Below the pieces are notes generated by a model. The model was not told the origin of the DNA, searched no databases, and worked only from the letters and a program-made list of their open reading frames with translations. A DNA stretch of 64,000 bases from Giardia intestinalis (lineage: Eukaryota). Made by a program: the position numbers and the translations under genes. Positions 8 to 18,626 of the stretch are shown in pieces; the first letter of the stretch is position 1, and each line of letters opens with the position of its first letter. The stretch lies in assembly GCA_000002435.2 (NCBI GenBank), contig CM018793.1; one strand, given 5' to 3'.

Positions 8-607
8 TCAGGTAAAGCGTATCTGGCAGGTTTCCATCGCCCTGGCCCTGCAGTAGGGGCATTTGGCGTCTACACGCATTAGCAGCTCCGCGCAGGAGCT
101 GCAGACGCACAGATGCCCGCAGGGGACGAAGGCGTGCGTGCTCTGCTTATCTAAGCAGACGCAGCACTCCCCGTCGGGCAGCTGCACCCTCTTGACGGCT
201 TTGGGGCGGCGGCGGCGTAGGGCGGCTTGCTGTCTCCTGATTATCGTTTGAGCCTTGGCTAAATCGAAACCAAGGCTTCTCGCTGCCCCTTCCGCCCTAT
301 CAAGCTGCTCGTAGAGCTCAGATAGGGCGGTCCCCGCCGTTGTGTATTTGGCCAGGCGCTGCTCTAAAGAGCACTTCTCTTTCCTGGCCTGCGCGCGCTC
401 TGCCCAAAGCTTTTCGCGGAGCCTCTTCACTTTGAGGCCCCGACGCTTCGCCTGGCTGCTCGCCATTGCGAGCAGCTCTTCGGCCGATCGGAGGAGGTCC
501 AGCTCGTCCACCGTAGTGGAATCGAGCTGGAAATCCTCGTCCGGCGTTTGTGGGAAGCCCACAAAGCCGGGGAAGCCGATCATGCAGTCAAAAGGCGGAG
601 TAGTCAT
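8..607 (-). CDS. C-terminal C3HC4 RING-finger protein (E3 ligase-like) with a coiled-coil middle region
   Basis: 199-aa ORF. The C-terminus reads CCVCLDKQSTHAFVPCGHLCVCSSCAELLMRVDAKCPYCRA, which has C-x2-C...C-x-H-x2-C-x2-C...C-x2-C spacing. The region upstream of the ATG is A-rich. The stop lies inside AGTGAAT (reverse complement of nt 1-12). Confidence 0.7.
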   Translation of the reverse strand: MTTPPFDCMIGFPGFVGFPQTPDEDFQLDSTTVDELDLLRSAEELLAMASSQAKRRGLKVKRLREKLWAERAQARKEKCSLEQRLAKYTTAGTALSELYEQLDRAEGAARSLGFDLAKAQTIIRRQQAALRRRRPKAVKRVQLPDGECCVCLDKQSTHAFVPCGHLCVCSSCAELLMRVDAKCPYCRARAMETCQIRFT

Positions 608-1675: not shown

Positions 1676-1775
1676 CGCCCTTTTTCTTTCCCGTCCGCAG
1701 AAGCCGATTTGAAGTGGTTTGCAACACATATGTTGCTTGGCCGTTCTGCAACACATATGCTGCCGCGAATAAATA
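1676..1775. promoter_or_regulatory. divergent promoter region with a duplicated GCAACACATATG(T/C)TGC inverted-repeat motif
   Basis: 100-bp spacer between divergent ATGs. The sequence is ttgcaacacatatgttgc...ctgcaacacatatgctgc. The first copy is GCAACA-cata-TGTTGC (6-bp arms). aataaataATG lies at the right end. Confidence 0.4.
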
Positions 1776-4205
1776 ATGACGCGGCGCATCCAGTGCGGAG
1801 GCTCCAGCCTCGAGATCGACCCGCTGACCGGCGAGCTCTCCTTCGAGGACTTCCTGAACACGGCAGAGCCGCCCGAGCAGGACCCGATGCCCGTCCCGAA
1901 GATCGACGTCGGAGGATCGCTGGAGATACTTAACAGCCCGATTGTCGAGGCTATCTTCGGCGACGTCCTTGATAAGCTAGATCTTTTCAAGAAAGATGTC
2001 GACGCGTTCATTGCGATGCTCAAGCAGAAGACGAAGAACGCGATCAATTGGGGGTTAGCGTTAGTCGGCGTGACGACTGTCTCGGGCCTCATGGTCGTCA
2101 TGGTGAGAGAGATCACCATGGCCATCAAGCGCTGGCAGCGAACGAGAGAGTATCAGGACAGTCAGCAGCCAGAAGCCCAGCCGAAGATGATCTCCAAGGA
2201 GAACATGGAGAAGAAGGACGAGATCAGCGAGATTAGCGGCGAAGATGTGGAACCGCCGAGTCTCGGGGAGTACGAGGAGCAGGTGTATGACGAGAACGGC
2301 AACGCCATGTTGAATCCTGACGGCTCGCCGTTGACAAAGACAGTCGTTATCCCCCTCGATCGGGACATCTCCGACCAGTACGACCCAATTCCCGAACCCG
2401 ATGACATCTCAGAAGAGGAAGAGGAGATAGAAGAGGACGAAGTGGAAGAGGAGCCGCCCATCAAGATAACTGATGAGCTGATCAGCGATATCTTCTGGGA
2501 GTTCGACAAGCAGCCCATCCTCAACGAAGAGAACTTCGAGTTCCTCTACGACAGCGGCGTTTACATCATTCACATCCCCCACGTATATATGAAGCGTACA
2601 TGCAAGTTGGGCGGCGACTATGCGGCCTATCCCTGCAAGATGATCGAAAGCATCATCGGACCTGCCTTATGGGACAGATACGGCCATACATTCAAACTGC
2701 GCTTTCCAAACTGCTCACATCAAGTATCTGGTCCCATGGGCACTGAAATCTGTTGTAAGTGTCATATGAATGATTCAGTTCATTGGAGGATACGCGTAAT
2801 ACCGGACGATCAGCCTATATGGTATAACAACGACTGCACGTGCGGCGCTAATTGCAGTTGTCGTTGCCATACCAAGACTCCAGAGAGCGTCTTCACCGTA
2901 ACATACAATTGCGTTTTTTGGTGTGTTCCCTGTGCCACAAGATGTATCTATACCCAGTACGAATCTGACTGTTGGACTCATTACAATTTTTCCACGGATC
3001 GGGGCTTTAGATCAGAAAGTGTCGCCGATAGTAACGGTTTTAGTTCTGCATATATAATACCCGCAGGTAAAAAAATCATACGTTATGAGAGCGAAAACAA
3101 GAACTACCCATATAACTCGCGCGAGTGCTGTGACTTCTGCAAGGTGATGAAGAATTACTTTTACGAAACCGAGGGCTACAAGCTGCACCGCACCAACACA
3201 GAGGTCTACATCTTCTTCTCCCGCGGCGAGAACTCGACAATCTTCGAGAAATGCAACGACCTCTTCAATGGCTATGTGTCCCAGAAGATCCACGACCTTC
3301 TTTCAGACTGGGACGCTGGCAACAATAAGATCATGAATCGACTCAGCATCGACTGTAAGTGCGATGTGAAGCGGCCGCGCTGCACGGACGTCTTCCGAGG
3401 CCTGGGAGAGGTCCATGCTGATACCGTTGGTTTCCTAAAAGGCCATGCCCAGAAGGTCAAATGGATATACCTCCCCGACTACGATTCAAATCTCGGCTTG
3501 CCTTGGTGGTATGACGACCCGCACGACTACCAATCGATCTCGAAGGTCTGCGCATTCGAGGGCTTCCTCGAGCGCAACATCCCCGAGCACGTCATCCGCT
3601 TCTACTCTTACCGCAGACTCACAGACAAGAAGTGGTTCGGGAACCTCTACAAGCAGATCTGCGATGCGATACTCTTGGATTACCCAGACATGCCTGCGGG
3701 CATTGGGGCTGCTGCGCAGAAGTGGAAGGACTTCAACGCATGGAAAGGCATTGATAAGATGCTCAGCGACGTCGTTCCGGTTAAACAGATATATCCCGAA
3801 CAGGTTTATCCTGAGACGCGGCTCTTCACTAGCAAGCCGGCCAACTGGAACCAGCTGAAGCAGCGCGGCGCGAGTTGGACCGGCGAAGTAGAGCCAGAGC
3901 TCGCGTCCTTCAAGCGCTACCTCGACCTCCTCAACAAGTACTACCCGGGCTGGTGGGAGTTCCGGGAGACGCAGGAGCTCGGCTGGTGGGACAATTTCTG
4001 GACCCAGATACCCGACCTCAGGGACCTTGAGCGGACCTCCATCTTCTACTACGAGGACCTCACCATTGACGAGACCCACTATGAGATATACGGCGAACCT
4101 CCTTGGTGGCGCAGTTTCTGGGGGCCGACGATACGAGACAAGGCGCCCGACCCGGAGAGGCCGCGCACATACGAGGAAACAGTTGAAGTGGCAAGTCGAT
4201 ATTAG
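1776..4205 (+). CDS. membrane-anchored protein with an acidic linker, a Cys-rich central domain and a Trp-rich C-terminus (809 aa)
   Basis: A single hydrophobic span, WGLALVGVTTVSGLMVVMV, lies near aa 92-115. An EEEEEIEEDEVEEE tract follows. CxC/CxxC clusters are dense (CTCGANCSCRCH, CVFWCVPCATRC). The C-terminus has PGWWEF..GWWDNFW..PPWWRSFW. The stop lies in TAGTGAAT. Confidence 0.7.
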   Translation: MTRRIQCGGSSLEIDPLTGELSFEDFLNTAEPPEQDPMPVPKIDVGGSLEILNSPIVEAIFGDVLDKLDLFKKDVDAFIAMLKQKTKNAINWGLALVGVTTVSGLMVVMVREITMAIKRWQRTREYQDSQQPEAQPKMISKENMEKKDEISEISGEDVEPPSLGEYEEQVYDENGNAMLNPDGSPLTKTVVIPLDRDISDQYDPIPEPDDISEEEEEIEEDEVEEEPPIKITDELISDIFWEFDKQPILNEENFEFLYDSGVYIIHIPHVYMKRTCKLGGDYAAYPCKMIESIIGPALWDRYGHTFKLRFPNCSHQVSGPMGTEICCKCHMNDSVHWRIRVIPDDQPIWYNNDCTCGANCSCRCHTKTPESVFTVTYNCVFWCVPCATRCIYTQYESDCWTHYNFSTDRGFRSESVADSNGFSSAYIIPAGKKIIRYESENKNYPYNSRECCDFCKVMKNYFYETEGYKLHRTNTEVYIFFSRGENSTIFEKCNDLFNGYVSQKIHDLLSDWDAGNNKIMNRLSIDCKCDVKRPRCTDVFRGLGEVHADTVGFLKGHAQKVKWIYLPDYDSNLGLPWWYDDPHDYQSISKVCAFEGFLERNIPEHVIRFYSYRRLTDKKWFGNLYKQICDAILLDYPDMPAGIGAAAQKWKDFNAWKGIDKMLSDVVPVKQIYPEQVYPETRLFTSKPANWNQLKQRGASWTGEVEPELASFKRYLDLLNKYYPGWWEFRETQELGWWDNFWTQIPDLRDLERTSIFYYEDLTIDETHYEIYGEPPWWRSFWGPTIRDKAPDPERPRTYEETVEVASRY

Positions 4206-4215
4206 TGAATTTACT
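4204..4215. terminator. stop/poly(A) palindrome AGTGAATTTACT shared by convergent genes
   Basis: Stops at 4203-4205 (+) and 4214-4216 (-). Arms are AGTGAAT (+) and AGTAAAT (-). Confidence 0.55.
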
Positions 4216-7090
4216 AATAACTGATGTTTATAGCCGGGTTCTTTGCCCAGTACCAGATCTTCACCCGGTTACCTGAGCCAAGGGATCTCGAATTCGACCA
4301 TGTTAATCGTAGGTTAATGTACGAATCGCTAGTATAGTCCGACCACGAGACTATGATTGTGTCATATGTACTAACGCGACAATCATACGCCTGGATCGAG
4401 ACAATGTCGTCATTGGATCTGCTCTGCATGTCGCTCGGAAAGTCCGCGAGATTCAGTCGCATGAACCCGTTGCCGTCGGTCGTCTGACTCGGCACAAAGC
4501 TCTTCAGCAGACACGGCGTCTTGAGGGCGTTGCATATCCGCTCTGAGTAGCTGCACAGCGTCTCACAGTCAGTAATCCGGCTCAGCTGATTAGAGAGCTG
4601 AGAGGTGTTCTGAGCGATAGAAGCCAGAGCACCCGTGATCTTACCAGCTTGCTGACTGACGTTGTTCGAGATGACCTGCACCTGGTTGTAGAGCTGGTTA
4701 TAACAACTAATGTGCGAGTTCAGAGACGATTGGACACCGCTAATGCGATTCGTGTTCCCTAAGACAGAGTCCCAAATGCCGCGCTCATTCGACTCAAGCG
4801 CATTGATGCGAGTCTCCAGAGCAGGCACATTTCCAACATTGCCATCAAGACGAGTAAGGCTCTCTCGAATCTCGCTGATGCTCTGGTCGACTGCTGTCAT
4901 GTGGCGGTCATGTGCATCTAAGGCGTCCTGCGTAGAGTCTCTCAAGCTCTCTAGTCGACCGTTTATCTCTCTCGCTGAATTGTTAACTGCATCGATAGTA
5001 GTCGCGAACTCTGTCGTTGTCCTCTCTAACGAACCTATCTTCACCTCAGATGCTTCCACTGTCCTGCTCATCCGAGACAGCGATGAAGAGAAGGCTGCAT
5101 TGTCTGTCTCAAAGACGCCTACCTTTTCAGCGAGCCTTCGGATGATCTCGTCCTGTGCAGCAAGGCGTTCTTCAAAAGCGCTTGCCTTTGCGCGCTCCTC
5201 TTCTAACTGTCTCTCAAGAGAGTCGATACGCGCTGCCGTTAATTGAGCGCCCACCTTTGCCTCGACCTTCTGCTGGTCGATGAGCTCTCTGAGATAGTTG
5301 TACGCGCCCTCGAGGTCTCTCTTGATCGTCATAGCATCGATCAGACCTCCCTCGAAGTCGGGAACTGAGATGTCGTTCCGCTCAAAGAACTGTGCGACAA
5401 TGGTCATCAGAATCTCCATGCGGTTCCGGAACTCCATGAGACTGTCCTGGTTACCCTCGAGCACGCTCACGCGGTCCTTCGTTTCATCTAACTGAACGCG
5501 GTCATCGTCAGTGTGACTCGTCAAGTCCCGAATACGCTCTTCAGCTCGCTTTACTTCCAAATGGGTCAAGGTCATATCATCGTTTATGTGTGAGAACTCA
5601 TCCCAAATGAACTGGAAGCGTTTATAAAGATCATCAGTCAGAAACTTGTATATCTTGCCGAACTTATAGTCATGCTGGTCGAGGCGGTACTTCGCTTCCA
5701 CTGCATATGTAAGGGCTACCGCAGCGACGACGCCAAGACACGCGTCTATCACATATCCGGTAATCAAGTTAATCAGATTCAGCTTCCGGAAAAGACCGCC
5801 CCCTGCGGCGATAATAGTATCAAACTCGCCGAGCTTATCCTTCATCAGATCTTCCTTCGTGAACGTCTTCTTCTTGATGAGATCGATCTGGCCCTCGGCG
5901 CGCTTGATGCGAGCCTCTAGAGTCTTCCGCTGCTTCTCGAGACGGTTGATCTTTGAATCGGCTTTCATTGCGTGCTTAGCAAGATAACGCGTTTGATGTG
6001 AGATGCGTCCCTTGCTAAGCTTCTTGAGACTCTTAATGGCTGTAACGTTACCGCCGATCTTGTAGTACTTTCCGAGGTGCTTGCGAAGACCATTGTCCTC
6101 GTCGCCGTCCTCATCGAAGCCCTGAAGCTGTCGATAGAGCCACATTGTCTGCTGGTTGAGCGAGGCGGCCATGAAGTCTGCACGAGACACGCGACCATCG
6201 GGAGAGAGCTTCTGATTGCTGCGACCAGCAAGCGACCCGCCGACCATCTGATAGATATACTGGATCTGCTCGATGACCGGTTGGCTCTTCAAATCGTCTT
6301 CGCTAATAGCGCCCGTCACGCCCTTGATGGAGATATCAGCATCTCTTGCAGCTCGCAGCCCAAACGTCTCAGGCTTCTTTATCTTACGTGGCTTCTTCGG
6401 CTCCTTTGGCTTCCTCTCCTTCTTGAGCTTCTTCTTCTTATCTGTAAGCGGCAGAAGGTCCTCCCGAAAAGCATAGTTGCCCCTTACCATCCACGTGACA
6501 GCAAGGATCTTCTGAACAATCGTCAGGTCGCGCAAATAGTCGAGCTTGTTCGGCGCATTCATATAGTCCTCCGGCTGGAAGTTGTTGTTGAAGCCGACCA
6601 TTGGGACCGACTTGACCTTCGGCTTCGAGAGAGTCTGCCCGGTTAGAGACATCGTATAGAGATCCGCAGGCACAGTCTTGAAGCCCAGTATCTCCTCCAT
6701 GAACTTCACTAGAAACGCTAGACACGGACCCTTCACCGGAGACTCTCCGTCGAAGGCATTGCCGTTCCAGTTCTTGATTTCATAGTTCTCATGATTACAA
6801 TAGTACTTGATGCACTTCTTTCGCTGAGCGGGGTCAAGAAGCTGCACGGCGCAGTGTATTGTCTTCCCGCCAAAGTACCCCGATATGCAGTGAGTCTTGC
6901 TGAGATTCAGGTTAGACCCAAACAGAGCTTTGCGTTCGTCAGGCACTAAGGCACACTGCATCACGTAGTCTTTGATGAGGTTATAATGATACGATGAGAG
7001 TGCGCTGACCTTATCTGCGAACGACTGCATCGACTCTGTCGTCATGAAGACGCCGTCGAGCTGCTCCCTGCGGATGATGAGGTTGTTCAT
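4214..7090 (-). CDS. large protein (958 aa): N-terminal domain, basic KKKKLKKERKPKEPKKPRKIKKPE tract, one central hydrophobic span, long coiled coil and a beta-rich C-terminal head (fibre/spike-like architecture)
   Basis: Uninterrupted 958-aa ORF. The hydrophobic segment is LINLITGYVIDACLGVVAAVALTYAV. About 350 aa of heptad-like sequence follow (RIDSLERQLEEERAK, KIGSLERTTTEF, ETRINALESNERG). The terminal ~100 aa are rich in S/T/Y/W (VSWSDYTSDSYINLRLTWSNS...KIWYWAKNPAINISY). Confidence 0.75.
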   Translation of the reverse strand: MNNLIIRREQLDGVFMTTESMQSFADKVSALSSYHYNLIKDYVMQCALVPDERKALFGSNLNLSKTHCISGYFGGKTIHCAVQLLDPAQRKKCIKYYCNHENYEIKNWNGNAFDGESPVKGPCLAFLVKFMEEILGFKTVPADLYTMSLTGQTLSKPKVKSVPMVGFNNNFQPEDYMNAPNKLDYLRDLTIVQKILAVTWMVRGNYAFREDLLPLTDKKKKLKKERKPKEPKKPRKIKKPETFGLRAARDADISIKGVTGAISEDDLKSQPVIEQIQYIYQMVGGSLAGRSNQKLSPDGRVSRADFMAASLNQQTMWLYRQLQGFDEDGDEDNGLRKHLGKYYKIGGNVTAIKSLKKLSKGRISHQTRYLAKHAMKADSKINRLEKQRKTLEARIKRAEGQIDLIKKKTFTKEDLMKDKLGEFDTIIAAGGGLFRKLNLINLITGYVIDACLGVVAAVALTYAVEAKYRLDQHDYKFGKIYKFLTDDLYKRFQFIWDEFSHINDDMTLTHLEVKRAEERIRDLTSHTDDDRVQLDETKDRVSVLEGNQDSLMEFRNRMEILMTIVAQFFERNDISVPDFEGGLIDAMTIKRDLEGAYNYLRELIDQQKVEAKVGAQLTAARIDSLERQLEEERAKASAFEERLAAQDEIIRRLAEKVGVFETDNAAFSSSLSRMSRTVEASEVKIGSLERTTTEFATTIDAVNNSAREINGRLESLRDSTQDALDAHDRHMTAVDQSISEIRESLTRLDGNVGNVPALETRINALESNERGIWDSVLGNTNRISGVQSSLNSHISCYNQLYNQVQVISNNVSQQAGKITGALASIAQNTSQLSNQLSRITDCETLCSYSERICNALKTPCLLKSFVPSQTTDGNGFMRLNLADFPSDMQSRSNDDIVSIQAYDCRVSTYDTIIVSWSDYTSDSYINLRLTWSNSRSLGSGNRVKIWYWAKNPAINISY

Positions 7091-7159
7091 TATTTATTTT
7101 CCCCACTCACACCAACCATTTGAAAGTGGAATCTGTTCTGAGAAAATAAAATGACGTAA
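7091..7159. promoter_or_regulatory. conserved bidirectional intergenic cassette (copy C1) with a 2-codon uORF ATG-ACG-TAA abutting the polB ATG
   Basis: The sequence is tatttattttcc...CCAACCATTTGAAAGTGGAATCT...GAGAAAATAAAATGACGTAAATG. Related cassettes lie at 11795-11867, 18294-18365 and 19231-19343, with an orphan at 20700-20747. Confidence 0.5.
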
Positions 7160-10100
7160 ATGGCAACCACTAGGGAACTCCTGACCATGCATCCCCAGCA
7201 GATGTCCGAGGACCAGCTCGCCCAGCTCAAGACGTCGCTCGAGACGCTCAACTACACCCAGCTCCGACAATACGTGCTCGGCCGCGTCAAGCCCCTCATC
7301 GAGAACGTCCGCAAGCACATCCAGGAGGACCCCGTCGGCTCGGTAGATCAAGTCCTCGACTTCCAGGACGGCTTCTGGTCCAAGGACCTGATCCAGCGCG
7401 TCCGCTGGAACCTCGCCCAGTTCAGGGTAAACGAGAAGAACCCCCGCAGAGTGCCGACCAGCAGAGCGAAGGAGGCGCTGGAGCTGAACTACATGACCGA
7501 CTACTCCTTCCGGCGCATCGTCTACCCGATCGTCGCAGACCTCGCCAAGGCTCTTTATCTCCGCGCAGAGGAAGCTAACCGCCGCAACACCGACGCTTCG
7601 GTGCGCTATGTCCCGCTTCTTGTCATGTTCAACCAGCAGAACACGTTCGGCTATCCGCCCCGCGTCGCCTTCCTCGTGACGCCTGCCGTCATCACGTTCC
7701 TCCGCGGATGGAAGGTCTTCGCCGACGGAGACGACGCCCACCAGCACTACCTCAACGCGGTCACGAGGGACGCGGCGCAGATCCACGGCGTCCAGTCCGC
7801 AGAGCCTGGCGAGATGCTCTACTGCTTCAACTGGGACCCCATTTTCGCCGGCACAGAGAGCGACCCCGAGAACCCCCGCAACGCCATGTTCTCCTTCGGG
7901 ACGATGTACGAGCCCGTCTTCATCTTCCAGATCCAGATCATCCGCACCAGAGAGGGCCAGCGGAAGCTCATCCACCGCAGGGGAGGTATGGCGCCCTTCA
8001 CGAACGACTCGTTCTTCGACCTCACGCGCTACCAGATCGAGAAGACAGGCGAGGGCTTCAAGAACAGCAAGGACACGTGTTTCCTCTACGCCCTCAAGCA
8101 GAGCGGCGTGCTGAGCGACGACGAGATACGGGCCGCCGCCTTCCACATCAACCAGGCCTCTGTCACCTTCGCGATGATCGACGCCATCGGCAAGCAGCTC
8201 TTCGTCTGCTTCCACATGCACATGGCAGACAGGGTCGTCCTCAAGGGCGCGCAGAAGAACCGCAAGGTTCCGCCGGGCGTCGCGATCCGGAACATCCACC
8301 TGGGCTTCGACTTCAACCACTACTACATCTTCGACGAGAAGCTCCCCTACAGCAAGACGTACGTGAACAACGCAGCCGTCATGATGGAGCACCACACATA
8401 CCCCGCGAACACGAACCTGCGCGAGGTCAACGTCAGAGACACCTTCCACCCGCAGACCAGGGAGCCGACGAAGAAGGTCGTCTTCGGCTACCACCGCGAC
8501 GACGACCCCCATACATGCTCGAGTCGGGACCTCATCCTCTCGCTCCACAAGCAGGGCCTCCTCAAGCCCATCCGCTCCGACAGCCTGCTGGCCATCAAGG
8601 AGTCCTTCATCCGCGAAGAGCACTACGAGGAGGACGCGCTCAACTACTGCGAGGACCAGCTGAAGGAGATCACGCCGAAGAAGAAGACCCAGTCGCCCAA
8701 GGACGTCTGGTTCGCAGACTTCGAGACGACGACCGACGGGGACCAGCACCACCCGTTCCTCCTCTGCTTCCACGGGATCAACAACGTCACGGGGACGTAC
8801 TGGGCGAAGGACTACAACAGCATCGGGGACATGGTCCGAGCGGCCTTCAACCGCCTCGCGATGCTCAACCGGCCCCAGCTGGTGTACTTCCACAACCTCA
8901 ACTACGACGGGGCCTTCGTCCTCCCGTACTTCGACGTCAAGAAGGACAGCATCGTCACCCTCGGGGCGAGCAAGATCATCGCGTTCACGATCCATGTCCG
9001 GCTGAGCGACGACCGGAAGAACAAGCCGATCCCGATCCACTTCCGGGACTCCTACGCCCTGATCACGGCTCCCCTCAGCAAGTTCGGCAAGATGTTCAAC
9101 CTCAACGTGCACAAGGAGGTCCTCCCGTACTCGTTCTACACCCAGGACAACGTCAAGAAGCTGTGCCAGGGCTTCAAGCCGACGCTCGAGGAGTACCTCT
9201 CGTACGAGATCGAGAGCAGGAGGGAGGAGCTCGAGCAGCTGCTCCGTACGCTGCCGGAGATGCTGGTAATAGACAGGGTCGACGCCTTCAAGTACGCCCA
9301 CTACTACTGCGCAAGAGACTGCCACGTGCTCAAGGACGGGGTGATGGGCTTCAGACGCCAGCTCCTCGAGGTCACGGGCATCGACGCCTTCACATCCATG
9401 ACGCTCCCGAGCATTGCCTACAACTTCCTCATCAACGAGAAGTGCTTCGAGGGCTGCTTCAACCTCAACACGGCGCCGCTCCTCTTCGTACGCCAGTGCG
9501 TGACGGGCGGGCGCTGCATGCTCCGGTGCAACGAGAAGCAGTACGTCGAGGGCGAGGTCATGGACTTCGACGCCGTCTCGCTGTATCCGTCTGCCATGGC
9601 GCGCCTCCACACCCTCATGGGCCACCCGAAGATCGTCGACCCCGAGAAGCACGACCTCGGCTGGCTCCTCCGGCAGGACGGCTGCTTCCTCGAGATCGAC
9701 ATCGAGGTCGTCCCGAAGCAGCTCGACTTCCCCCTCATCAACAGGCAGACGGAGAAGGGGAGGCACTTCTCGAACGAGCCGGGCCCGATGTTCGCCGACA
9801 ACATCACGATCGAGGACATCATCGAGTACCACAAGGTCCCGATGAACCGGATCAGGGTCCTCCGGGGCTACTACTACGACGAGGGCAAGAACACGAACAT
9901 CCAGGCCGTCATCCGGAAGATCTTCGAAGCGCGGCTCAAGTTCAAGGCGGAGGGCAACCCGCTCGAGAGCATCTACAAGCTCATCATGAACAGCTGCTAC
10001 GGGAAGAGCATCCTCAAGCCCGTCTACAAGCGGATGAACACGGTCGACCACGCGGGCCTTGAGAGAGAGCTCCTCGACAACTCGGCCGATGTCCTCTGCT

Positions 10101-10756
10101 GGGAGCCGCTCTACGACGGCGGCCGCTTCCTCCTCAAGCAGAGCAAGCCCCTTCTGGAGGCGAACAGCTTCCCGACGTTCGGGGTCCAGGTGCTCTCGAT
10201 GAGCAAGCGCATCATGACGGAGGTGATGGCGACGGCCCAGGACCACGGGCTCCCGATCTACTACACAGACACGGACAGCATCCACATCGACAAGGCGTCC
10301 ATCGAGCCCCTCCGGAACTACTTCCACGCGCGCTTCCAGCGGGAGCTCATCGGGAAGAACCTCGGCCAGTTCCACTCAGACTTCCCCGACAGCCCCTCCG
10401 GGGAGATGTTCGTCAGCCGCTACTTCATCGGCGTCGGCAAGAAGGCATACCTCGACATCCTCCAGGACAGCCAGAACAACATGAGCTACCACGCGCGCCT
10501 CAAGGGCATCCCCGAGCAGGCGATCCTCAACGAGGCCCGGCAGCGCTGCTCCCACAACTTCCTCGGCGGGCTCTACAACCTCTACGCGGACCTCTACAAC
10601 GGCGTGCCCCAGACCTTCAACCTCATCTACGACGGCGCGGTGCGCTTCGTGCGAGACGCCAGCCTCGCCTACCGCTGCAGGGACGACTTCAAGCGGAGAG
10701 TCATCTTCGAGAGGGAGCCCGATGAGCCCCTGAACATATCAAAGCTGATGCAGTAA
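7160..10756 (+). CDS. family-B DNA polymerase of the protein-primed type (pPolB), 1198 aa, with a ~500-aa N-terminal extension
   Basis: Exo I is VWFADFETTTDG (aa ~517-527). Exo II is FHNLNYDGAF (aa ~577-586). Exo III is YYCARDCHVL (aa ~715-724). Motif A is DFDAVSLYPSAM (aa 802-813). Motif B is KLIMNSCYGKS (aa 940-950). Motif C is YYTDTDSIH (aa 1034-1042). A KKAY motif lies at aa ~1094-1097. The stop lies in AGTAAAT. Confidence 0.92.
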   Translation: MATTRELLTMHPQQMSEDQLAQLKTSLETLNYTQLRQYVLGRVKPLIENVRKHIQEDPVGSVDQVLDFQDGFWSKDLIQRVRWNLAQFRVNEKNPRRVPTSRAKEALELNYMTDYSFRRIVYPIVADLAKALYLRAEEANRRNTDASVRYVPLLVMFNQQNTFGYPPRVAFLVTPAVITFLRGWKVFADGDDAHQHYLNAVTRDAAQIHGVQSAEPGEMLYCFNWDPIFAGTESDPENPRNAMFSFGTMYEPVFIFQIQIIRTREGQRKLIHRRGGMAPFTNDSFFDLTRYQIEKTGEGFKNSKDTCFLYALKQSGVLSDDEIRAAAFHINQASVTFAMIDAIGKQLFVCFHMHMADRVVLKGAQKNRKVPPGVAIRNIHLGFDFNHYYIFDEKLPYSKTYVNNAAVMMEHHTYPANTNLREVNVRDTFHPQTREPTKKVVFGYHRDDDPHTCSSRDLILSLHKQGLLKPIRSDSLLAIKESFIREEHYEEDALNYCEDQLKEITPKKKTQSPKDVWFADFETTTDGDQHHPFLLCFHGINNVTGTYWAKDYNSIGDMVRAAFNRLAMLNRPQLVYFHNLNYDGAFVLPYFDVKKDSIVTLGASKIIAFTIHVRLSDDRKNKPIPIHFRDSYALITAPLSKFGKMFNLNVHKEVLPYSFYTQDNVKKLCQGFKPTLEEYLSYEIESRREELEQLLRTLPEMLVIDRVDAFKYAHYYCARDCHVLKDGVMGFRRQLLEVTGIDAFTSMTLPSIAYNFLINEKCFEGCFNLNTAPLLFVRQCVTGGRCMLRCNEKQYVEGEVMDFDAVSLYPSAMARLHTLMGHPKIVDPEKHDLGWLLRQDGCFLEIDIEVVPKQLDFPLINRQTEKGRHFSNEPGPMFADNITIEDIIEYHKVPMNRIRVLRGYYYDEGKNTNIQAVIRKIFEARLKFKAEGNPLESIYKLIMNSCYGKSILKPVYKRMNTVDHAGLERELLDNSADVLCWEPLYDGGRFLLKQSKPLLEANSFPTFGVQVLSMSKRIMTEVMATAQDHGLPIYYTDTDSIHIDKASIEPLRNYFHARFQRELIGKNLGQFHSDFPDSPSGEMFVSRYFIGVGKKAYLDILQDSQNNMSYHARLKGIPEQAILNEARQRCSHNFLGGLYNLYADLYNGVPQTFNLIYDGAVRFVRDASLAYRCRDDFKRRVIFEREPDEPLNISKLMQ

Positions 10757-10763
10757 ATTTACT
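10752..10763. terminator. perfect 12-bp stop/poly(A) palindrome AGTAAATTTACT
   Basis: Stops at 10754-10756 (+) and 10763-10765 (-). Confidence 0.6.
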
Positions 10764-11794
10764 TAGCGCTCCATAATCTCCTTGAACCTCCCAAAGGTTA
10801 GAGGCTCAGCATTGAAGAACTTCTTCTTCCTTGCCCACGCAGAGAGACGATCGAAGAAAGCCTCAGACGATATCTGCTTGTCCCCAATGGTAAAGCTGTA
10901 ACGACGATCATGATACTCATCAATATCGAACCAGGCGTCTGTGATCGCAAACTGACGCGTAACAGCAGCTGCCTTTATCAAACAGTACTGGCCACCGCTC
11001 CATATGGTTCCCACATGACCCGGCTCTATCGCGACAACTGGGTTGTAAATGCCCTTATGCTCGAGGAGGAACTCGTTCGTCTGCCTGATCGTGTCAAGCG
11101 CATCGACCTCGCACAGACGATGAGGATCATCCGAGGCCCTGTCCTTGATGTGGTCCTCACAGACAGCCGGGTCGATAGCGAAGCGCACATGGAAGGCCGG
11201 AAGGATGCCTGCGCGGAGCATGTAGTGGTCGATCAGGTAGTGGAGGTACTGGCCTTGCTCCTTCGTGATGTAGCCGTCACTCATCTTGAAGAGGATGAAC
11301 GCGCTAGTAGACGGCAGCCAGCGGTCGAAGATGATGAAGTCGTACTGCTGATACTCTTCGGCAAAACGGCAATGAAGAAGCTGCTTCCCCAGTGCATGGA
11401 CCACCTGCTCCTGGAACTGGAAAGCAAGCTCCCTGGGGTTCTTGTAGTACTCCTCGAGGGTGATGCCTCCGTTCTGTCCAAAGTGGTTGTCTGCCACGGC
11501 CTCCTCGATGATGGTAGCTTCGAAGCCTTGGTCGATCAGGTACTTCTTGAGATGCTTGCAGAAGGTGGACTTGCCTGCGCCGATGGGACCGTCAACAACG
11601 ATGATGCGAGGATCAATGACAACAGGCGGCACAACTCTCGAACTGAAATCGCTGAGCTTCCATACGAGGTTATCGTCCATGTTGATCCCGATGTCAACTG
11701 ACTCCAGAAAGTCTTCGACTGGCCAGTGTGATGATTTACTATCGATGAGGCCTGGCTCAGCTGGCTGGTTCTGGGGCTCGTAGTACTGGCTCAT
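10763..11794 (-). CDS. deoxynucleoside kinase family protein (dNK/dCK-like P-loop kinase) with N- and C-terminal extensions
   Basis: The start was trimmed to MSQYYEPQNQ, which follows ggaaaataaa. The P-loop is VVDGPIGAGKST. Other dNK-like motifs are IIEEAV, LEEYYKNPRELAFQFQ and IIFDRWLPSTSAF (ERS-like), plus the lid-like HIKDRASDD. Order and spacing resemble Drosophila dNK and dCK/dGK. Confidence 0.75.
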   Translation of the reverse strand: MSQYYEPQNQPAEPGLIDSKSSHWPVEDFLESVDIGINMDDNLVWKLSDFSSRVVPPVVIDPRIIVVDGPIGAGKSTFCKHLKKYLIDQGFEATIIEEAVADNHFGQNGGITLEEYYKNPRELAFQFQEQVVHALGKQLLHCRFAEEYQQYDFIIFDRWLPSTSAFILFKMSDGYITKEQGQYLHYLIDHYMLRAGILPAFHVRFAIDPAVCEDHIKDRASDDPHRLCEVDALDTIRQTNEFLLEHKGIYNPVVAIEPGHVGTIWSGGQYCLIKAAAVTRQFAITDAWFDIDEYHDRRYSFTIGDKQISSEAFFDRLSAWARKKKFFNAEPLTFGRFKEIMER

Positions 11795-11867
11795 TTTATT
11801 TTCCCAGTAGTGCACGTCTCAAGAGCCAAACCATTTTAAAGTGAATTCTCCCCACGGAAATAAAAGT
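11795..11867. promoter_or_regulatory. conserved bidirectional intergenic cassette (copy C2)
   Basis: The sequence is tttattttcc...GCCAAACCATTTTAAAGTGAATTCTCCCC..GGAAATAAAAGTATG. Confidence 0.5.
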
Positions 11868-12839: not shown

Positions 12840-13679
12840 TTACTTTGCAAACAGCTTTACGATGTCTTCCTTGTCTCCGGCAATGGCCAACGCAAAAACC
12901 CTACCATTATTGATGTCCTTCTCCTTATCTGCCAACAAAGCAGCACAAGCAGCATGGCCATTTCTCACAGCCCACTCGAAAGCAGTACCACGGGCGTTAT
13001 TGCATAACCTGGCCTCCTTATCTAACAACAGCTTGACGATGTCTGCGTAACCACAGGATGCTGCTAGCATGAGAGCGGTCCAGCCGTCGTTATCCTTCAT
13101 GCCTGCCTCCTTCTCCGCTAATAGGTTAGCGCACTTAGTGTGACCCTTACACGCAGCCCACATGAGAGCAGTCCTACCATCTTTATTCTTCATGCCGGCC
13201 TCCTTCTCTAACAACAGCTTAACGCTGTATGCGGAATCCTTGGATGCTGCTATTATGAGAGCCGACCCGCAGCATCTCGCACATATACCGGCCTCCTTCT
13301 TCACTAGCAGGTCAACGCACTTAAAATTAAACTTACTCACAGCCCACATGAGGGCGGTCCTACCGATGACATCCTTCATACCAGCCTCCTTCTCTAACAG
13401 CAGCTTAACGCAGTCTGTATAGCCTTCGGATGCTGCTATCATGAGAGCCGTCAAGCCGTGTCCATCACTCATACCAGCCTCCTTCTCCACTAGCAGGTTA
13501 GCGCAGTTAGTATGACCCTCCCTCGCAGCCCACATGAGGGCAGTCCAGCTGTTGAAATCCCTCAGGCCAGCCTCCTTGTCTACTAGTTCCCTGACGACAT
13601 CGATGTTACCTTGCGCTGCTGCTTCTATGAGATCCCTAAAACCATATCCTGGCGACTTGTATTCTCGATAAGCCTTCAT
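12840..13679 (-). CDS. ankyrin-repeat protein (279 aa, ~8 repeats of the TALMWAA..GH..CV.LL..KEAG type)
   Basis: A regular ~33-aa ANK periodicity runs through the whole ORF. The start is ggaaaataaaatATG. The stop lies in AAGTAAAC. Confidence 0.88.
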   Translation of the reverse strand: MKAYREYKSPGYGFRDLIEAAAQGNIDVVRELVDKEAGLRDFNSWTALMWAAREGHTNCANLLVEKEAGMSDGHGLTALMIAASEGYTDCVKLLLEKEAGMKDVIGRTALMWAVSKFNFKCVDLLVKKEAGICARCCGSALIIAASKDSAYSVKLLLEKEAGMKNKDGRTALMWAACKGHTKCANLLAEKEAGMKDNDGWTALMLAASCGYADIVKLLLDKEARLCNNARGTAFEWAVRNGHAACAALLADKEKDINNGRVFALAIAGDKEDIVKLFAK

Positions 13680-13701: not shown

Positions 13702-14161
13702 GAATCAATTAATCAGATCAGAATCAATTCGTCAGAATGGTTTGCACTTCCTGACTGCCGCCTCCCAGAAAAAAAAAATAACGCTGGCCTGCTTTCTGCT
13801 TTCGGGCTGTCTGTATGTCGCACTTCGGTGTCGTGCGGGCCCGGGGGCAGGGAGCAGACCAGGCTGGCCGGCAGCTGAACCGGGCGCGAACGCATCACAC
13901 ACATCCAAGGACAACGCGGTCTCCTCCCGGCGTGCACGGCACCACGCTGGGCGGTTCCGGGGGGAGGCCGCGATTTTTTTTGAAAATTTACAGGTTTTTT
14001 ATTCTGTTGAAAAGTAGGTAAACGAGCGCCAGCGTGTGGGAGCCTAGTGGGCGGACCGGCACACGCAGACGCACTTGTGGGGGACGCTTTCGTTTTTTTG
14101 GGCCCAGCCCCGTGCAGGCCCAAAAAAACGAAAGTGGGCACCACAAGGATATATACTACTG
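13702..14161. repeat. repeat module R, copy A (~460 bp)
   Basis: Colinear with 19809-20231. The order is a GAATCA array, A10-TAACGCT, a conserved core GTATGTCGCAC..GGTGTCGTGCGGGC, ~190 bp of GC-rich sequence, T8 and an AT-rich tract, an 18-bp-stem hairpin (14087-14134), then GGATATATACTACTG. Homology stops abruptly after this last motif. Confidence 0.85.
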
Positions 14162-17100
14162 ACGCCCGCCGTCATCACGTTCCTCCGCGGCTGGAAGGTC
14201 TTCGCAGACGGCGACGACGCGCACCGGCACTACCTCAACGCGGTTACGAAGGACGCGGCGCAGATCCACGGCGTCCAGTCTGCAGAGCCCGGCGAGATGC
14301 TCTACTGCTTCAACTGGGACCCGGTCTTCGGGGGCACTGAGAGCGACCCCGAGAACCCCCACAACGCGCTCTTCTCGTTCGGGACGATGTACGAACCCGT
14401 CTTCTTCTTCCAGATCCAGATCGTGCGCATGAAGGATGGCCAGCGGAAGTTCATCCACCGGCGCGGCGGCCTGGCCCCCTTCACGAACGACTCGTTCTTC
14501 GACCTCAACCGCTACCAGATCGAGCGGACAGGCGAAGGCTTTCGGAACAGCAAGGACACGTGCTTCCTCTACGCTCTCAAGCAGAGCGGGCAGCTGAACG
14601 ACGAGGAGATCAAGGCCGCGGCGCTCCACATCAACCAGGCGGCGGTCACGTTCGCGATGGTCGACGCGATCGGCAAGCAGCTCTTCATCTGCTTCCACAT
14701 GCACATGCCGGACAGGGTCGTCCTCCGGGGCGCACAGAAGGGCCGCAAGCTCCCGCCCGGCGTCGCACTCCGGAACATCCAGATAGGCTTCGACTTCAAC
14801 CACTACTACATCTTCGACGAGAAGCTCCCCTACAGCAAGGCGTACGTGAACCACGCGTCCGTGATGATGGAGCACAACGCGTACCCGGAGAACGCGAACG
14901 TCCGCGAGGTCAGCGTCCGGAACACCTTCCACCCGGAGACCCGGGAGCCGATGCAGAAGGTCGTCTTCGGCTACCACCGCGACGACGACCCCCACACGTG
15001 CACGAGCCGCGACCTCCTCCTCTCGCTCCACAAGCAGGGCCTCCTCCGCCCGATCCGCTCAGACGACCTCCTCGCCGTCAAGGAGTCCTTCATCCGCGAG
15101 GAACACTACGCGGAGGACAACCTCGAGTTCTGCGAGAACCAACTCAAGAAGATCGAGCCCAAGAAGAAGCAGGCCCCGCCGAAGGACGTCTGGTTCGCGG
15201 ACTTCGAGACGACGACCGACGGGGACCAGCACCACCCGTTCCTCCTCTGCTTCCACGGGGCGAACAATGTGACGGGGACTACTGGGCGAAGGACTACACA
15301 GCATCGGGGACATGGTCCAGCGGCCTTCCCGCCTCGCGACCTCAACCGGCCCCAGCTGGTTACTTCACAACCTCAACTACGACGGGGCCTTCGTCCTCCC
15401 GTACTTCGACGTCAAAAGGACAGCATCGTCACCCTCGGGGCGAGCAAGATCATCGCGTTCACATCCACATCCGACTGAGCGACGACCGGAAGAACAAGCC
15501 GATCCCGATCCACTTCCGGGACTCCTACGCCCTGATCACGGCGCCCCTCAGCAAGTTCGGGAAGATGTTCAACCTCGACGTCCACAAGGAGGTCCTCCCG
15601 TACTCGTTCTACACGCAGGAGAACGTCCGCAAGCTCGCAGAGGGCTACCGGCCGACCCTCGAGGAGTACCTCTCGTACGAGATGGAGAGCAGACGGACCG
15701 AGCTCGAGCAGCTGGTCCGCATGCTGCCGGGGATGCTCGTCGAGGACCGCGTCGATGCGCTCCGCTACGCCCACTACTACTGCGCGCGGGACTGTCACGT
15801 GCTCAAGGAGGGCGTCCTCCGCTTCCGGCAGCAGCTCCTCGAGGTCACCGGGATCGACGCGTTCACGTCCATGACTCTCCCGAGCGTCGCGTACAACTAC
15901 CTCATCAACGAGAAGTGCTTCGAGGGCTGCTTCAACCTCAACACGGCTCCGCTTCTCTTCGTGCGCCAGTGCGTGACGGGCGGGCGCTGCATGCTCCGGA
16001 ACAACGAGAAGCAGTACGTCGAGGGCGAGATCATGGACTTCGACGCGGTCTCCCTGTACCCGTCCGCAATGGCGCGCATCTACACCCTCAAGGGCCACCC
16101 GAAGGTCGTCGACCCCGAGAAGCACGACCTCGGCTGGCTCCTCCGCCAGGACGGCTGCTTCCTCGAGATAGACATTCAGATCGTCCCGAAGACCCTCGAC
16201 TTCCCCCTCATCAACCGCCAGACGGAGAAGGGCCGCCACTTCTCAAACGAGCCAGGCCCGATGTTCGCGGACAACATCACGATCGAGGACATCATCGAGT
16301 ACCACAAGGTCCCGATGAACCGAATCCGCGTCCTCCGGGGCTACTACTACGACGAGGGGAAGAACTTCGCCATCCAGACCGTTATCCGGAAGCTCTTCGA
16401 TACGCGCCTCAAGTTCAAGGCGGAGGGCAACCCCCTTGAGAGCATCTACAAGCTCATCATGAACAGCTGCTACGGGAAAAGCATCCTCAAGCCCGTCTTC
16501 AAGCGGATGAACACCGTCGACCGGGCCGGGCTCGAGCGGGAGCTCCTCGACAACTCCGCCGACATCCTCTGCTGGGAGCCGCTCTACGACGGCGGCCGCT
16601 TCCTCCTCAAGCAGAGCCGCCCGCTCCTCATGGCGAACAGCTTCCCGACGTTCGGCGTCCAGGTCCTCTCGATGAGCAAGCGCATCATGACGGAGGTGAT
16701 GGCAACGGCCCAGGACCACGCGCTCCCGATCTACTACACGGACACCGACAGCATCCACATCGACAAGCGGTCAATAGAGCCGCTCCGGAACTACTTCCAC
16801 GCGCGCTTCCACCGCGAGCTCATCGGCAAGAACCTCGGCCAGTTCCACTCGGACTTCCCCGACAGCCCCTCCGGCGAGATGTTCGTCAGCCGCTTCTTCG
16901 TCGGCGTCGGCAAGAAGGCGTACCTCGACATCCTCCAGGACAGCCAGGGCCACATGAGCTACCACGCGCGCCTCAAGGGCATCCCCGAGCAGGCGATCCT
17001 CAACGAGGCCCGCCAGCGCTGCGCCCAGAACTTCCTCGGCGGGCTCTACAACCTCTACGCCGACCTCTACAACGGCGTCCCCCAGACCTTCAACCTCATC

Positions 17101-17229
17101 TACGACGGCGCCGTCCGCTTCGTCCGCGACGCGCACCTCGCCTACCGCTGCCGCGACGACTTCAAGCGCCGCGTCATCTTCGAGAAGGAGCCCGACGCGC
17201 CCCTGAACGTCGTCAAGCTCATGCAGTGA
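14162..17229 (+). pseudogene. second pPolB copy, 5'-truncated (starts at the equivalent of aa ~173) and frame-broken around Exo II
   Basis: The 14075-15478 frame and the 14560-17229 frame together are colinear with polB aa ~173-1198. Motifs A, B, C and KKAY are intact (DFDAVSLYPSAM, KLIMNSCYGKS, YYTDTDS). A net 10 nt are missing between 15274 and 15474. There is no ATG or promoter at the 5' junction with module R. Confidence 0.85.
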
Positions 17230-17236
17230 ATTTACT
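17225..17236. terminator. stop/poly(A) palindrome AGTGAATTTACT
   Basis: Stops at 17227-17229 (+) and 17232-17234 (-). Confidence 0.55.
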
Positions 17237-18293
17237 CCATGCTGCTCTCCTCGTCGCGCGCAAGGACCTCCTGGAACTCATCAAACGACAAGGCCATCAT
17301 CTGCATGCGGCGCTTGAACGGATTGACGAACCTCCCATATGCGGTCCAATCGCAGAGCTCGTTGAAGAAGACAAACGCGTTGATCCTGCGCATCCCGATC
17401 TGGACGAAGTAGCGGCGGTCCTCGCCGAGGAAGAGAGTATTCTCGACAACGTACTGGCGCGTCACCCTCGCGGCCGCGACGAGCGAGAACTGGTTCCCCG
17501 CCGAGAAGGCCTTGCTCCACTCGGTGTCCGCTGGATGGTTCAGGTTGAAGACCGGCGTGTAGACGCCCTTGTGCTTGAGGAGGAACTCGTTCGTCTTACT
17601 CACGACCCCGAGCGCGTCCTCCTCGCACTGGCGGTGTTCCTCCTCAGCAGCGCGCTGGACGATACGCTGCGCACAGATCAGCGGGTCCGTCGCAAAGCGG
17701 ACGTGTGTCGCCGGAAGGATCCCCGCGTACGACATGTAGACGTCGATCAGGTAGTGGAGGTACATCGCCTGGCGGCCCGTAATATGGCCCTCCTGCACCT
17801 GGAAAAGGACGAACGCACTCGTCGAGGGCAGCCAGCGGTCGAAGATGACGAGGTCGTAGTCCTTGTACTTGTCCGTGAAGCGGTACTCGAGGAGCTGGTC
17901 TGCGAGAGCATGTGTGACGGCGAGCTGGAAGCGGTACGCGTTGGCGTGCGGGTCCCTGTAATACTCGTCGAGCGTGATCCCGTACGCGCTGAAGCACTCG
18001 AGCCCCACAACCTCCTCGATGACCACTGCCTTCAGCCCGCTGTCCTGGGCGTGCTCGACAAGGCGGCGGCAGAAGAGGGACTTGCCGGCCCCGATGGGTC
18101 CGTCGACGACAATCATGCGCGGATCGACGCACGCCGGCGGGATGACGGATGCGTGCCGCGCCAGGCTCAACCCGCGAAGAGTGGACAGCTTCGAGTTCAC
18201 CTCGAGCAGCTCCTCGGACACGTCGTAGTAGAGGCTCGAGTGGCGGACAAGCTCGGTCCCGGGCTGGTTCTGGGGCTCGTAGTACAGGCTCAT
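17232..18293 (-). CDS. deoxynucleoside kinase family protein, divergent paralog of 10763-11794
   Basis: The start was trimmed to MSLYYEPQNQ, which follows ggaaataaa. The P-loop is VVDGPIGAGKSL. Also present are LDEYYRDPHANAYRFQ, VIFDRWLPSTSAF and HYLIDVYM. The ORF is intact. Roughly half its residues are shared with copy 1. Confidence 0.72.
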   Translation of the reverse strand: MSLYYEPQNQPGTELVRHSSLYYDVSEELLEVNSKLSTLRGLSLARHASVIPPACVDPRMIVVDGPIGAGKSLFCRRLVEHAQDSGLKAVVIEEVVGLECFSAYGITLDEYYRDPHANAYRFQLAVTHALADQLLEYRFTDKYKDYDLVIFDRWLPSTSAFVLFQVQEGHITGRQAMYLHYLIDVYMSYAGILPATHVRFATDPLICAQRIVQRAAEEEHRQCEEDALGVVSKTNEFLLKHKGVYTPVFNLNHPADTEWSKAFSAGNQFSLVAAARVTRQYVVENTLFLGEDRRYFVQIGMRRINAFVFFNELCDWTAYGRFVNPFKRRMQMMALSFDEFQEVLARDEESSME

Positions 18294-18365
18294 TTTATTT
18301 CCTGGCGGCCTCCCCAATAAATGCCAAAGCATTTGAAAGTGAATTCTCCCGCCAAAAATAAAAGT
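18294..18365. promoter_or_regulatory. conserved bidirectional intergenic cassette (copy C3)
   Basis: The sequence is tttatttcc...GCCAAAGCATTTGAAAGTGAATTCTCCCGCCAAAAATAAAAGTATG. Confidence 0.5.
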
Positions 18366-18617
18366 ATGGCAGGCCACCTCCTCAGCAGCAAGGGGACCAC
18401 GAAAAACGAGAACAAGCTCTTCACCCAGAAGCCGACGCCCTTCTACGACGCAGGCACCGTCCCGGTCCGCCTCGCGTCCGTGCCCTTCGAGAACCGCAAC
18501 GAGCCGATTCGCGTCCAGATCGACGAGCCGCCCAAGCCCCGCCCTCGCGCAGGCCTCGTCCGCACCCGCAAGAGGCTGATCCCGAGGAACCGCTGGAAGA
18601 AGAACACGTACCAGTAA
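18366..18617 (+). CDS. small basic protein (83 aa), paralog of 11868-12122
   Basis: The protein reads MAGHLLSSKGTTKNENKLFTQKPTPFYDAGTVPVRL... About 70 of its first 79 residues are identical to copy 1. Confidence 0.55.
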   Translation: MAGHLLSSKGTTKNENKLFTQKPTPFYDAGTVPVRLASVPFENRNEPIRVQIDEPPKPRPRAGLVRTRKRLIPRNRWKKNTYQ

Positions 18618-18626
18618 ATGTTTACT
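18613..18626. terminator. stop/poly(A) palindrome AGTAAA-tg-TTTACT
   Basis: Stops at 18615-18617 (+) and 18622-18624 (-). Confidence 0.55.

Follow-up and report, generated by a model that had tools for sequence, protein, structure and literature searches.

Adenovirus fibre knobs and hexon hypervariable regions, like the receptor-binding cassettes of phages, join a conserved docking end to an exchangeable hypervariable domain with sharp recombination boundaries. Baculovirus PIFs and the poxvirus entry-fusion proteins A28, H2 and L5 are N-anchored, Cys-rich and non-glycosylated entry proteins; PRD1 is a double-jelly-roll virus with an internal membrane, carrying the membrane-associated vertex protein P16 together with the spike proteins P5 and P2; and nematode Mavericks are reported to have captured a gB-like fusogen. 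Giardia, a major parasite of humans and animals, has to our knowledge and in the literature searched only one characterised virus, which has a double-stranded RNA genome. Here we analyse GL50803_3666, a gene on a 64,000-nucleotide (nt) stretch of Giardia intestinalis DNA (contig CM018793.1 of assembly GCA_000002435.2; the whole stretch is hereafter called the window). The gene is a complete open reading frame (ORF) of 809 amino acids (aa) at 1776-4205 on the plus strand, its product is 100% identical to the hypothetical protein GL50803_3666 of Giardia duodenalis WB, and our comparisons point to an orphan viral membrane protein. We favour, with a probability of about 45%, the reading that it is a membrane-anchored host-recognition or entry protein that works with a transmembrane coiled-coil fibre encoded next to it.

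Viral origin and pairing with a fibre-like gene

The left ~20 kb of the window form a virus-like island with genes for a RING-finger protein, GL50803_3666, a 958-aa coiled-coil protein, a protein-primed DNA polymerase (pPolB), a deoxynucleoside kinase and an ankyrin-repeat protein; the right half carries ordinary Giardia genes (TBCC, SF-assemblin, GlnRS, a proteasome ATPase and a VSP). The pPolB gene (7160-10756, plus strand; PF03175, E = 5e-37) is present in all related loci, which are denoted here by L and a number, and its product shares 97.8% aa identity with that of L003. The order RING, GL50803_3666, fibre-like gene, pPolB and kinase is fixed in seven loci (L001-L004, L009, L013 and the Giardia copy L005). 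Every homolog of GL50803_3666 that was looked up sits within this same viral gene order, and not in the conserved host context that an earlier reading of the letters alone (the sequence-only reading) had named as the sign of a cellular gene. Confined in this way to a conserved virus-like gene order beside pPolB, GL50803_3666 is, on the evidence of its gene neighbourhood, viral.

The kind of virus is indicated by three components. Besides pPolB, an A32-like packaging ATPase was detected (L009:8032-8973; PF04665, E = 8.2e-6, 25.9 bits versus a cutoff of 22.8), and a double-jelly-roll major capsid protein was recognised by fold search. The capsid candidate was modelled on a short (508-aa) member with low confidence, with a predicted local distance difference test score (pLDDT) of 53 and a predicted template-modelling score (pTM) of 0.47; searches of PDB sequences with this candidate and with a penton-like protein gave no match, the fold search alone having identified the capsid protein. 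Because of this content of pPolB, double-jelly-roll capsid and A32 ATPase, we regard the island as an integrated Polinton/Maverick-like, capsid-forming virus. No description of this virus or of GL50803_3666 was found in the literature searched, where the Giardia polymerase appears only in published trees.

The neighbouring gene (4214-7090, minus strand) encodes a fibre-like protein of 958 aa, in which an N-terminal domain and a basic stretch are followed by a hydrophobic helix, a long coiled coil and, at the C-terminus, a beta-rich head. As the sequence-only reading had noted, the two genes lie tail-to-tail: the GL50803_3666 stop codon ends at 4205 and that of the partner at 4214, with 8 nt between them. 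They are convergent in every locus examined, and the pair is retained even in relatives at 27-32% identity. The smaller relatives encode a complete 244-aa protein, P0023, which matches the N-terminal part of GL50803_3666; its gene, too, lies tail-to-tail with a fibre gene, whose 918-aa product is homologous to the fibre-like protein over the full length (E = 1e-158), so the pairing of N-terminal module and fibre is old and conserved. Among all proteins of the element, only these two have a strongly hydrophobic helix, with Kyte-Doolittle values of 1.99 for GL50803_3666 and 2.14 for the fibre-like protein (aa 442-460). The comparisons thus support a functional tie between GL50803_3666 and its fibre-like neighbour. 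The pairing of a small integral membrane protein with a spike or fibre in a double-jelly-roll virus recalls P16 with P5 and P2 of PRD1, a likeness that the 244-aa ancestral form fits. Unlike in PRD1, however, the Giardia-type protein is far larger and has a variable domain, an internal membrane is here hypothetical, and no homology could be demonstrated.

Searches of ENA and SRA assemblies yielded 17 full-length homologs of 44-77% identity, which together with GL50803_3666 make up the family of 18 members used throughout. None of the 18 had a match in Pfam, and neither PHROGs nor PDB sequence profiles were matched by GL50803_3666; searches of IMG/VR contigs and JGI metagenome contigs gave no match either. 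When 1.84 billion representative proteins were searched exhaustively with a HMMER profile, the only hits were family members, fragments, P0023 (244 aa) and one bacterial repeat protein, P0026 (E = 5.6e-4). The last was rejected as a relative, the match being compositional and due to DDCAG...DDGNGN repeats. The AlphaFold2 prediction and fold search that the sequence-only reading had proposed, no family being assignable by eye, found no fold relative of the protein. By these sequence, profile and fold searches the family is an orphan. The ratio of non-synonymous to synonymous substitution rates (dN/dS) of GL50803_3666 relative to L003 is 0.22, which indicates that the gene is overall under purifying selection.

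These data also bear on the idea of an ordinary Giardia surface protein, of the VSP or high-cysteine type, that merely adjoins the island. Giardia has many Cys-rich surface proteins, one VSP gene lies in the window itself (54008-60238), and GL50803_3666 resembles the VSPs in being Cys-rich, variable, membrane-anchored and present in Giardia. It differs from them in lacking a PF03302 match (E = 4e-56 for the VSP of the window), in having only three CxxC motifs and an N-proximal instead of a C-terminal anchor, and in being virus-encoded. With no VSP or other Pfam match among the 18 members, all homologs looked up inside the viral gene order and no homolog elsewhere among the 1.84 billion proteins, this explanation is hardly credible.

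Module boundaries and cassette exchange

Three modules can be distinguished in the protein. The N-terminal core module (aa 1-217; 1776-2426, plus strand) consists of an LEIDPLTGEL peptide, amphipathic helices, the hydrophobic helix and an acidic, Pro-rich linker. It is this module that P0023 matches (profile E = 3.6e-23; BLASTP E = 5e-14 over aa 5-217), the short protein having the same features, namely an LxIDPLTGxL peptide, a hydrophobic helix and an acidic, Pro-rich tail. The N-terminal module is therefore, as far as sequence comparison can tell, the ancestral part of the protein, and we propose that the central Cys-rich domain was acquired in the Giardia-type lineage. The C-terminal domain (aa 554-809; 3435-4202, plus strand) is conserved, mostly helical and Trp-rich, and contains all four WW motifs of the protein.

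Between these lies a central domain built on a Cys scaffold (aa ~235-553; 2478-3434, plus strand), which holds 15 of the 16 invariant Cys and is hypervariable. The DNA of L001 and L012 is 97-100% identical in the flanks and 27-59% identical across codons ~235-553. Likewise, L002 and L013 are ~96% identical in the flanks and 44-56% in the centre of the gene. At the protein level, P0009 and P0013 have C-terminal domains that are 100% identical and central domains that are only 30-57% identical, and in identity matrices the central-domain types group incongruently with the flank lineages. Local dN/dS is ~1.0 at aa 317-354. These patterns, seen in two independent pairs of otherwise near-identical viruses, show at the sequence level that the central domain is exchanged as a cassette by recombination. 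Such exchange suggests that the domain behaves like an exposed specificity determinant.

A second boundary lies close to the start of the gene. The first ~40 codons (1776-1895, plus strand) belong to the conserved backbone and encode a candidate docking peptide; aa 1-20 have a mean pairwise identity of 0.78, the highest of all 20-residue blocks. Compared in 300-nt windows, the DNA of the WB copy and of L003 is 97-98% identical across 1297-1895 and drops to 69% at 1896-2192. On a larger scale, the two are 97-99% identical as far as codon 40 and once more beginning with the polymerase gene, and only 42-89% identical across the later codons and the whole fibre gene. Because the divergence from L003 spans exactly the codons beyond 40 plus the fibre gene, the first 40 codons appear to travel with the backbone and the rest with the fibre.

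The arrangement thus resembles the adenovirus and phage determinants in its conserved docking end, its exchangeable hypervariable domain and its sharp recombination boundaries, and it resembles adenovirus also in being encoded by a double-jelly-roll virus that replicates with pPolB. It departs from them in that no sequence or fold similarity was found, in the position of the variable part, which is central and not distal, and in the membrane-type helix, which is absent from adenovirus fibre and hexon.

A role of GL50803_3666 as the terminal protein of protein-primed replication was considered and dropped: the polymerase has its own N-terminal extension of ~560 aa, and a swapped hypervariable domain is not expected in a terminal protein.

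Membrane-type helix, proposed entry function and alternatives

The sole hydrophobic span of the protein, aa 92-110 (WGLALVGVTTVSGLMVVMV; 2049-2105, plus strand), reaches its Kyte-Doolittle mean of 1.99 over 19 residues and is a candidate transmembrane anchor. It is kept in 18/18 family members, with W92, L96, G98 and T101 invariant, and in the AlphaFold2 model it falls within a long helix (aa 75-129) of low pLDDT. The N-terminus is hydrophilic, and no hydrophobic N-terminal signal peptide was seen. The helix is followed by an acidic, largely disordered linker (aa 130-235; 2163-2480, plus strand) with 36 D/E versus 7 K/R in 106 residues and pLDDT below 50 at aa 131-161 and 194-224. Beyond it are found 25 Cys, 24 of them in aa 276-629 and most densely in aa 313-400; 16 Cys, together with H365 and H471, are invariant in the 18 sequences. 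Most 10-residue blocks of the central domain have a pLDDT of 70-89. An N-proximal anchor followed by a strictly conserved Cys domain is shared with the PIFs and the poxvirus entry-fusion proteins, and as in these, glycosylation seems irrelevant and the protein probably works with other membrane proteins.

The protein contains 25 Trp (3.1%) and four WW dipeptides against 0.71 expected (P = 0.0036). These lie in an LPWWYDD motif (aa 577-578), in two copies of WWxxFWxxxI(P/R)D and in a PGWWEF motif; the pairs at aa 577-578, 737-738 and 777-778 are invariant, and at aa 726-727 only W726 is. The single hydrophobic span, the acidic linker, the Cys-dense region and the C-terminal WW motifs had all been picked out in the sequence-only reading, and the family comparison upholds each of them. 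Its description of the Trp segments as membrane-proximal-like is not supported, since they are C-terminal and lie 600 residues from the sole hydrophobic helix. Peaks of interfacial hydrophobicity at the WW motifs were not significant, 697 of 1,000 shuffles of this Trp-rich sequence reaching the observed value. The N-x-S/T sites to which it had also drawn attention proved unremarkable: five are present where chance would give 3.8 (P = 0.32), their number in the homologs ranges from 0 to 6, and each site of GL50803_3666 is common to only 1-8 of the 18 sequences, so that none is conserved. From the proposal of an envelope or entry glycoprotein, the viral gene, the membrane-type helix and the link to the fibre remain, and 'glycoprotein' finds no support.

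On the favoured reading, the protein is probably exposed; its location, topology, receptor binding and membrane activity are what we infer from the features above. The N-terminal module would anchor it in a membrane that it shares with the fibre-like protein, be it a lipid layer of the virion or the membrane at which particles form, while docking to conserved components of the virus would fall to the first 40 residues. The variable Cys-rich domain, exposed on this view, would set what the virus binds or escapes, in the simplest case a variable Giardia surface receptor or gut antibody pressure. In the aromatic C-terminal domain the WWxxFW helices would display stripes of aromatic residues, and the domain may serve a conserved membrane-interacting or partner-binding step of entry. 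GL50803_3666 and the fibre would together constitute a host-recognition and entry module.

A stronger version of this idea makes the protein a bona fide fusion glycoprotein, similar to those of class I, II or III, in an enveloped particle, with the Trp segments as membrane-proximal region or fusion loops and the hydrophobic helix as fusion peptide. The composition of the helix, rich in G, A, V, T and S, is fusion-peptide-like, the WWxxFW helices are aromatic, and the nematode Maverick fusogen is said to provide a precedent: there too, an accessory membrane protein of a Maverick/Polinton element could mediate entry. Unlike that fusogen, GL50803_3666 shows no detectable class III fold and is an orphan built onto an older 244-aa viral module, not a gene captured from another virus. 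Neither the features that define class I (a signal peptide at the N-terminus, a transmembrane anchor at the C-terminus and a fusion peptide with two heptad repeats) nor the multi-domain beta-rich fold of classes II and III (E/E1, gB/G/GP64) was found in it, it has neither a signal peptide nor a second membrane anchor, and its sequons are at chance level. Moreover, the 244-aa homolog has no Trp-rich part, and because of this absence that part cannot carry the core function of the lineage. We therefore rate a fusion glycoprotein as very improbable.

Several observations weigh against the favoured reading. We know of no Polinton-like virus or adenovirus for which a lipid membrane or envelope has been shown. 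Literature searches with gene and protein identifiers found no expression or proteomic evidence for GL50803_3666. Sequence, profile and fold searches found no sequence or structural relative among known attachment, fusion or envelope proteins, and the AlphaFold2 model of the whole protein is of moderate quality only (pLDDT 63, pTM 0.43). The capsid proteins, compared across P0027-P0064 (alignment A4), comprise short forms of 505-509 aa and long forms of 870-1020 aa, the latter with a poorly conserved central insertion of 350-500 aa between conserved N- and C-terminal parts (for example L005:704-3322); so large and variable an insertion speaks for the capsid itself being the surface that is exposed, and suggests a naked capsid. 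Finally, within 15 residues of the helix there are on average 3.4 K+R on its N-terminal side and 3.7 on its C-terminal side. With charges thus balanced and no positive-inside bias, the sequence beside the helix does not fix the topology. The Cys count C-terminal of the helix is odd in many homologs, and the acidic disordered linker and the Cys clusters beside invariant His would fit a cytosolic domain that binds zinc just as well.

The last points lead to a reversed topology, in which the first 90 residues would face the lumen or the exterior and the large C-terminal part would lie in the cytosol or within the virion, its Cys and His binding zinc. The variable domain would then act on a rapidly evolving host factor inside the cell, for instance as an antagonist of defence, or have an internal, membrane-associated structural or penetration role. 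The CCxC, CxCx3CxCxCH, CxxC and CxC clusters with invariant H365 and H471 suit this arrangement, as do the odd Cys totals, the strongly acidic linker, the lack of a glycosylation signal and flanking charges that do not favour type II. Against it, the 16 invariant Cys are even in number and compatible with eight disulfides, whole-domain allelic exchange on a conserved Cys scaffold is the classic pattern of an exposed binding domain, and no Pfam zinc-finger family, nor any zinc-cluster domain such as pre-SET or CXC/tesmin-like, is matched. We hold the reversed arrangement to be distinctly unlikely. An attempt to decide between disulfides and zinc from Cys parity was abandoned, the invariant Cys numbering 16 and the totals often being odd.

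The variable capsid is also a point in favour of a non-structural role, as a naked capsid would have no need of membrane spikes. In this alternative the protein resides in the plasma membrane, endoplasmic reticulum or nuclear envelope of the infected or lysogenic cell and acts with the fibre-like protein in superinfection exclusion, surface remodelling or egress, its swapped centre setting the specificity of exclusion or immunity between virus lineages. A single hydrophobic helix is confined to this protein and its neighbour, and cassette exchange is also typical of immunity and exclusion determinants. In addition, WB carries two divergent paralogs on one chromosome, GL50803_3666 and GL50803_16697, which makes competition between elements plausible. 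However, the coiled-coil stalk and head of the partner are more typical of virion attachment structures, and the gene pair is kept in small and large virus types alongside morphogenetic genes. We consider a non-structural role unlikely, though the most probable of the alternatives. As to the known systems reviewed above, GL50803_3666 belongs to none of the families compared, since each defining feature tested either failed or gave no decision.

The viral element, its relatives and their significance

Three accessory genes of the virus code for the RING-finger protein, the deoxynucleoside kinase and the ankyrin-repeat protein. The first is encoded at 8-607 (minus strand; PF13920, E = 2.9e-13), at the same position as in L002, L004, L005, L013 and L014. 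Downstream of pPolB follow the kinase (10763-11815, minus strand) and the ankyrin-repeat protein (12840-13679, minus strand), which is 87% identical to the L003 copy and was not seen in L001 or L002. Further upstream, L005 and longer contigs carry the A32 ATPase, an rve-like integrase and two large proteins. The integrase assignment is based on weak PF00665 matches (E = 9e-4 and 1.8e-3, below the curated cutoff) and a PHROG transposase match (E = 8.5e-4). In Giardia SRA assemblies, the left arm just upstream of the window contains the A32 ATPase, small ORFs, an 872-aa capsid protein, a 342-aa integrase and a 773-aa penton-like protein. The start of the window (1-~14000) falls inside an apparently intact integrated virus, all large ORFs of the copy being open (L005:1-10000). 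We estimate the genome of the Giardia virus at ~25-30 kb. Long ORFs overlap pPolB in other frames (7094-10375, minus strand, 1093 aa; 7708-10062, plus strand, 784 aa) and are most likely by-products of composition in this GC-rich (about 56-61%) part of the island.

Polinton-like viruses usually encode an Ulp1/adenain-type protease. None was identified in the element, and neither an adenain/Ulp1-like protease nor a penton gave a Pfam match among its remaining ORFs. The N-terminus of GL50803_3666 (aa 1-10; 1776-1805) reads MTRRIQCGG|S, with Q-x-G invariant across the family and G-S in place of G-G in two homologs; the Q-x-G-G resembles a cleavage site of this protease type.

Candidate expression signals were noted on both sides of the gene. 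A 17-nt direct repeat, TGCAACACATATGYTGC, occurs in two copies (1720-1736 and 1747-1763, plus strand) 13-56 nt 5' of the ATG. Elsewhere in the window it has a single three-mismatch match on the minus strand (1721-1737), which overlaps the first copy, with 0.17 matches expected. The orthologs in L003 and L005-L008 have both copies upstream and that in L004 has one; the pair is a candidate gene-specific cis element. Immediately 5' of the ATG lies an AT-rich stretch, GAATAAATA (1766-1775, plus strand), which looks like an initiator of the Giardia type. The ATG of the fibre gene on the minus strand is preceded by the same AATAAATAATG context as that of GL50803_3666. At the 3' end, AGTGAAT (4204-4210, plus strand) overlaps the stop codon and fits AGTRAAY, the Giardia polyadenylation consensus; this signal and the start context speak for a real gene.

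Further virus sequences lie nearby. A second copy of the polymerase, truncated at its 5' end and split between frames (ORFs 14075-15478 and 14560-17229), followed by a kinase gene and genes for 98 and 216 aa, occupies 14048-19300 and duplicates the right arm of the virus. A third short polymerase fragment at ~20330-20400 precedes a GC-rich degenerate stretch that reaches to ~24 kb, where host genes begin. The paralog GL50803_16697 (cluster of P0018) is an 824-aa protein, 44% identical to GL50803_3666 and encoded on the same 4.0-Mb chromosome; a second, divergent virus copy nearby is therefore implied. It is annotated about 15-23 genes from GL50803_3666, outside the window. Related copies were found in the Giardia P15, DHA2 and GS-B assemblies. 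The DHA2 copy (L014) is a decayed remnant that has only the first ~172 codons of the homolog left (AHGT01000070.1:13122-13646). Its capsid, integrase and RING genes are present, and the 16.5 kb fetched had no match to the C-terminal part of GL50803_3666, to the fibre or to the polymerase.

A smaller sister lineage is represented by L015 and L010 (ENA contigs of 18.9 and 19.8 kb, L010 covering only part of its contig), with a 505-508-aa capsid, a 1148-aa polymerase and the ATPase; the L015 virus encodes the 244-aa short form and the 918-aa fibre homolog. One contig of this lineage comes from the same sample as the large-type L009 (ERZ27273579). L009:1-9733 contains a 6.5-kb inverted duplication of 87% identity centred near 4867, a head-to-head junction of two left arms. 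Because the ~400-bp repeats at this junction also match the right ends L001:21254-22019 and L002:17518-18037, they may represent the terminal inverted repeats of a linear genome.

Variability among these viruses is not restricted to the centre of GL50803_3666. Just 3' of a 347-aa ORF in L002 lies a gene for 999 aa, possibly the penton-like gene, that is 30-47% identical to L013 over most of its length (L002:1727-3842), and the DNA directly 3' of it (L002 4143-5042) is 92-100% identical to L013. This gene resembles a further swapped or hypervariable module. The variable centre of GL50803_3666, the capsid insertion and this large upstream gene would fit a shared surface-directed selection, if those regions are surface-exposed.

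Taken together, these results define a new, lineage-restricted family built on an older viral membrane module, and a known kind of virus in a host where it had been undescribed. GL50803_3666 points to a DNA virus lineage in Giardia that is intact, encodes a capsid and recombines, and it is the most clearly host-facing, fast-diversifying component of that virus. It exemplifies the way in which an older membrane-anchor protein gains entry modules in Polinton-like viruses, and it makes the presence of lipid in such viruses testable. If it sets host range or entry, it would help to understand transmission, to type the virus lineages of Giardia isolates and to engineer a DNA vector for this host. 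A bolder proposal, improbable as a whole, is that Giardia hosts active Polinton-like double-jelly-roll viruses with lipid-bearing particles and a two-protein, membrane-anchored entry apparatus of coiled-coil fibre and GL50803_3666, in which the Cys-scaffold domain is a receptor-binding module that tracks the antigenically varying Cys-rich coat of the host or the pressure of gut antibody. Were this proposal true, the protein would represent a class of entry proteins not described before, the particle would be the first polinton-like virion to bear a membrane, and the system might offer a handle on a DNA virus that infects an important human parasite.

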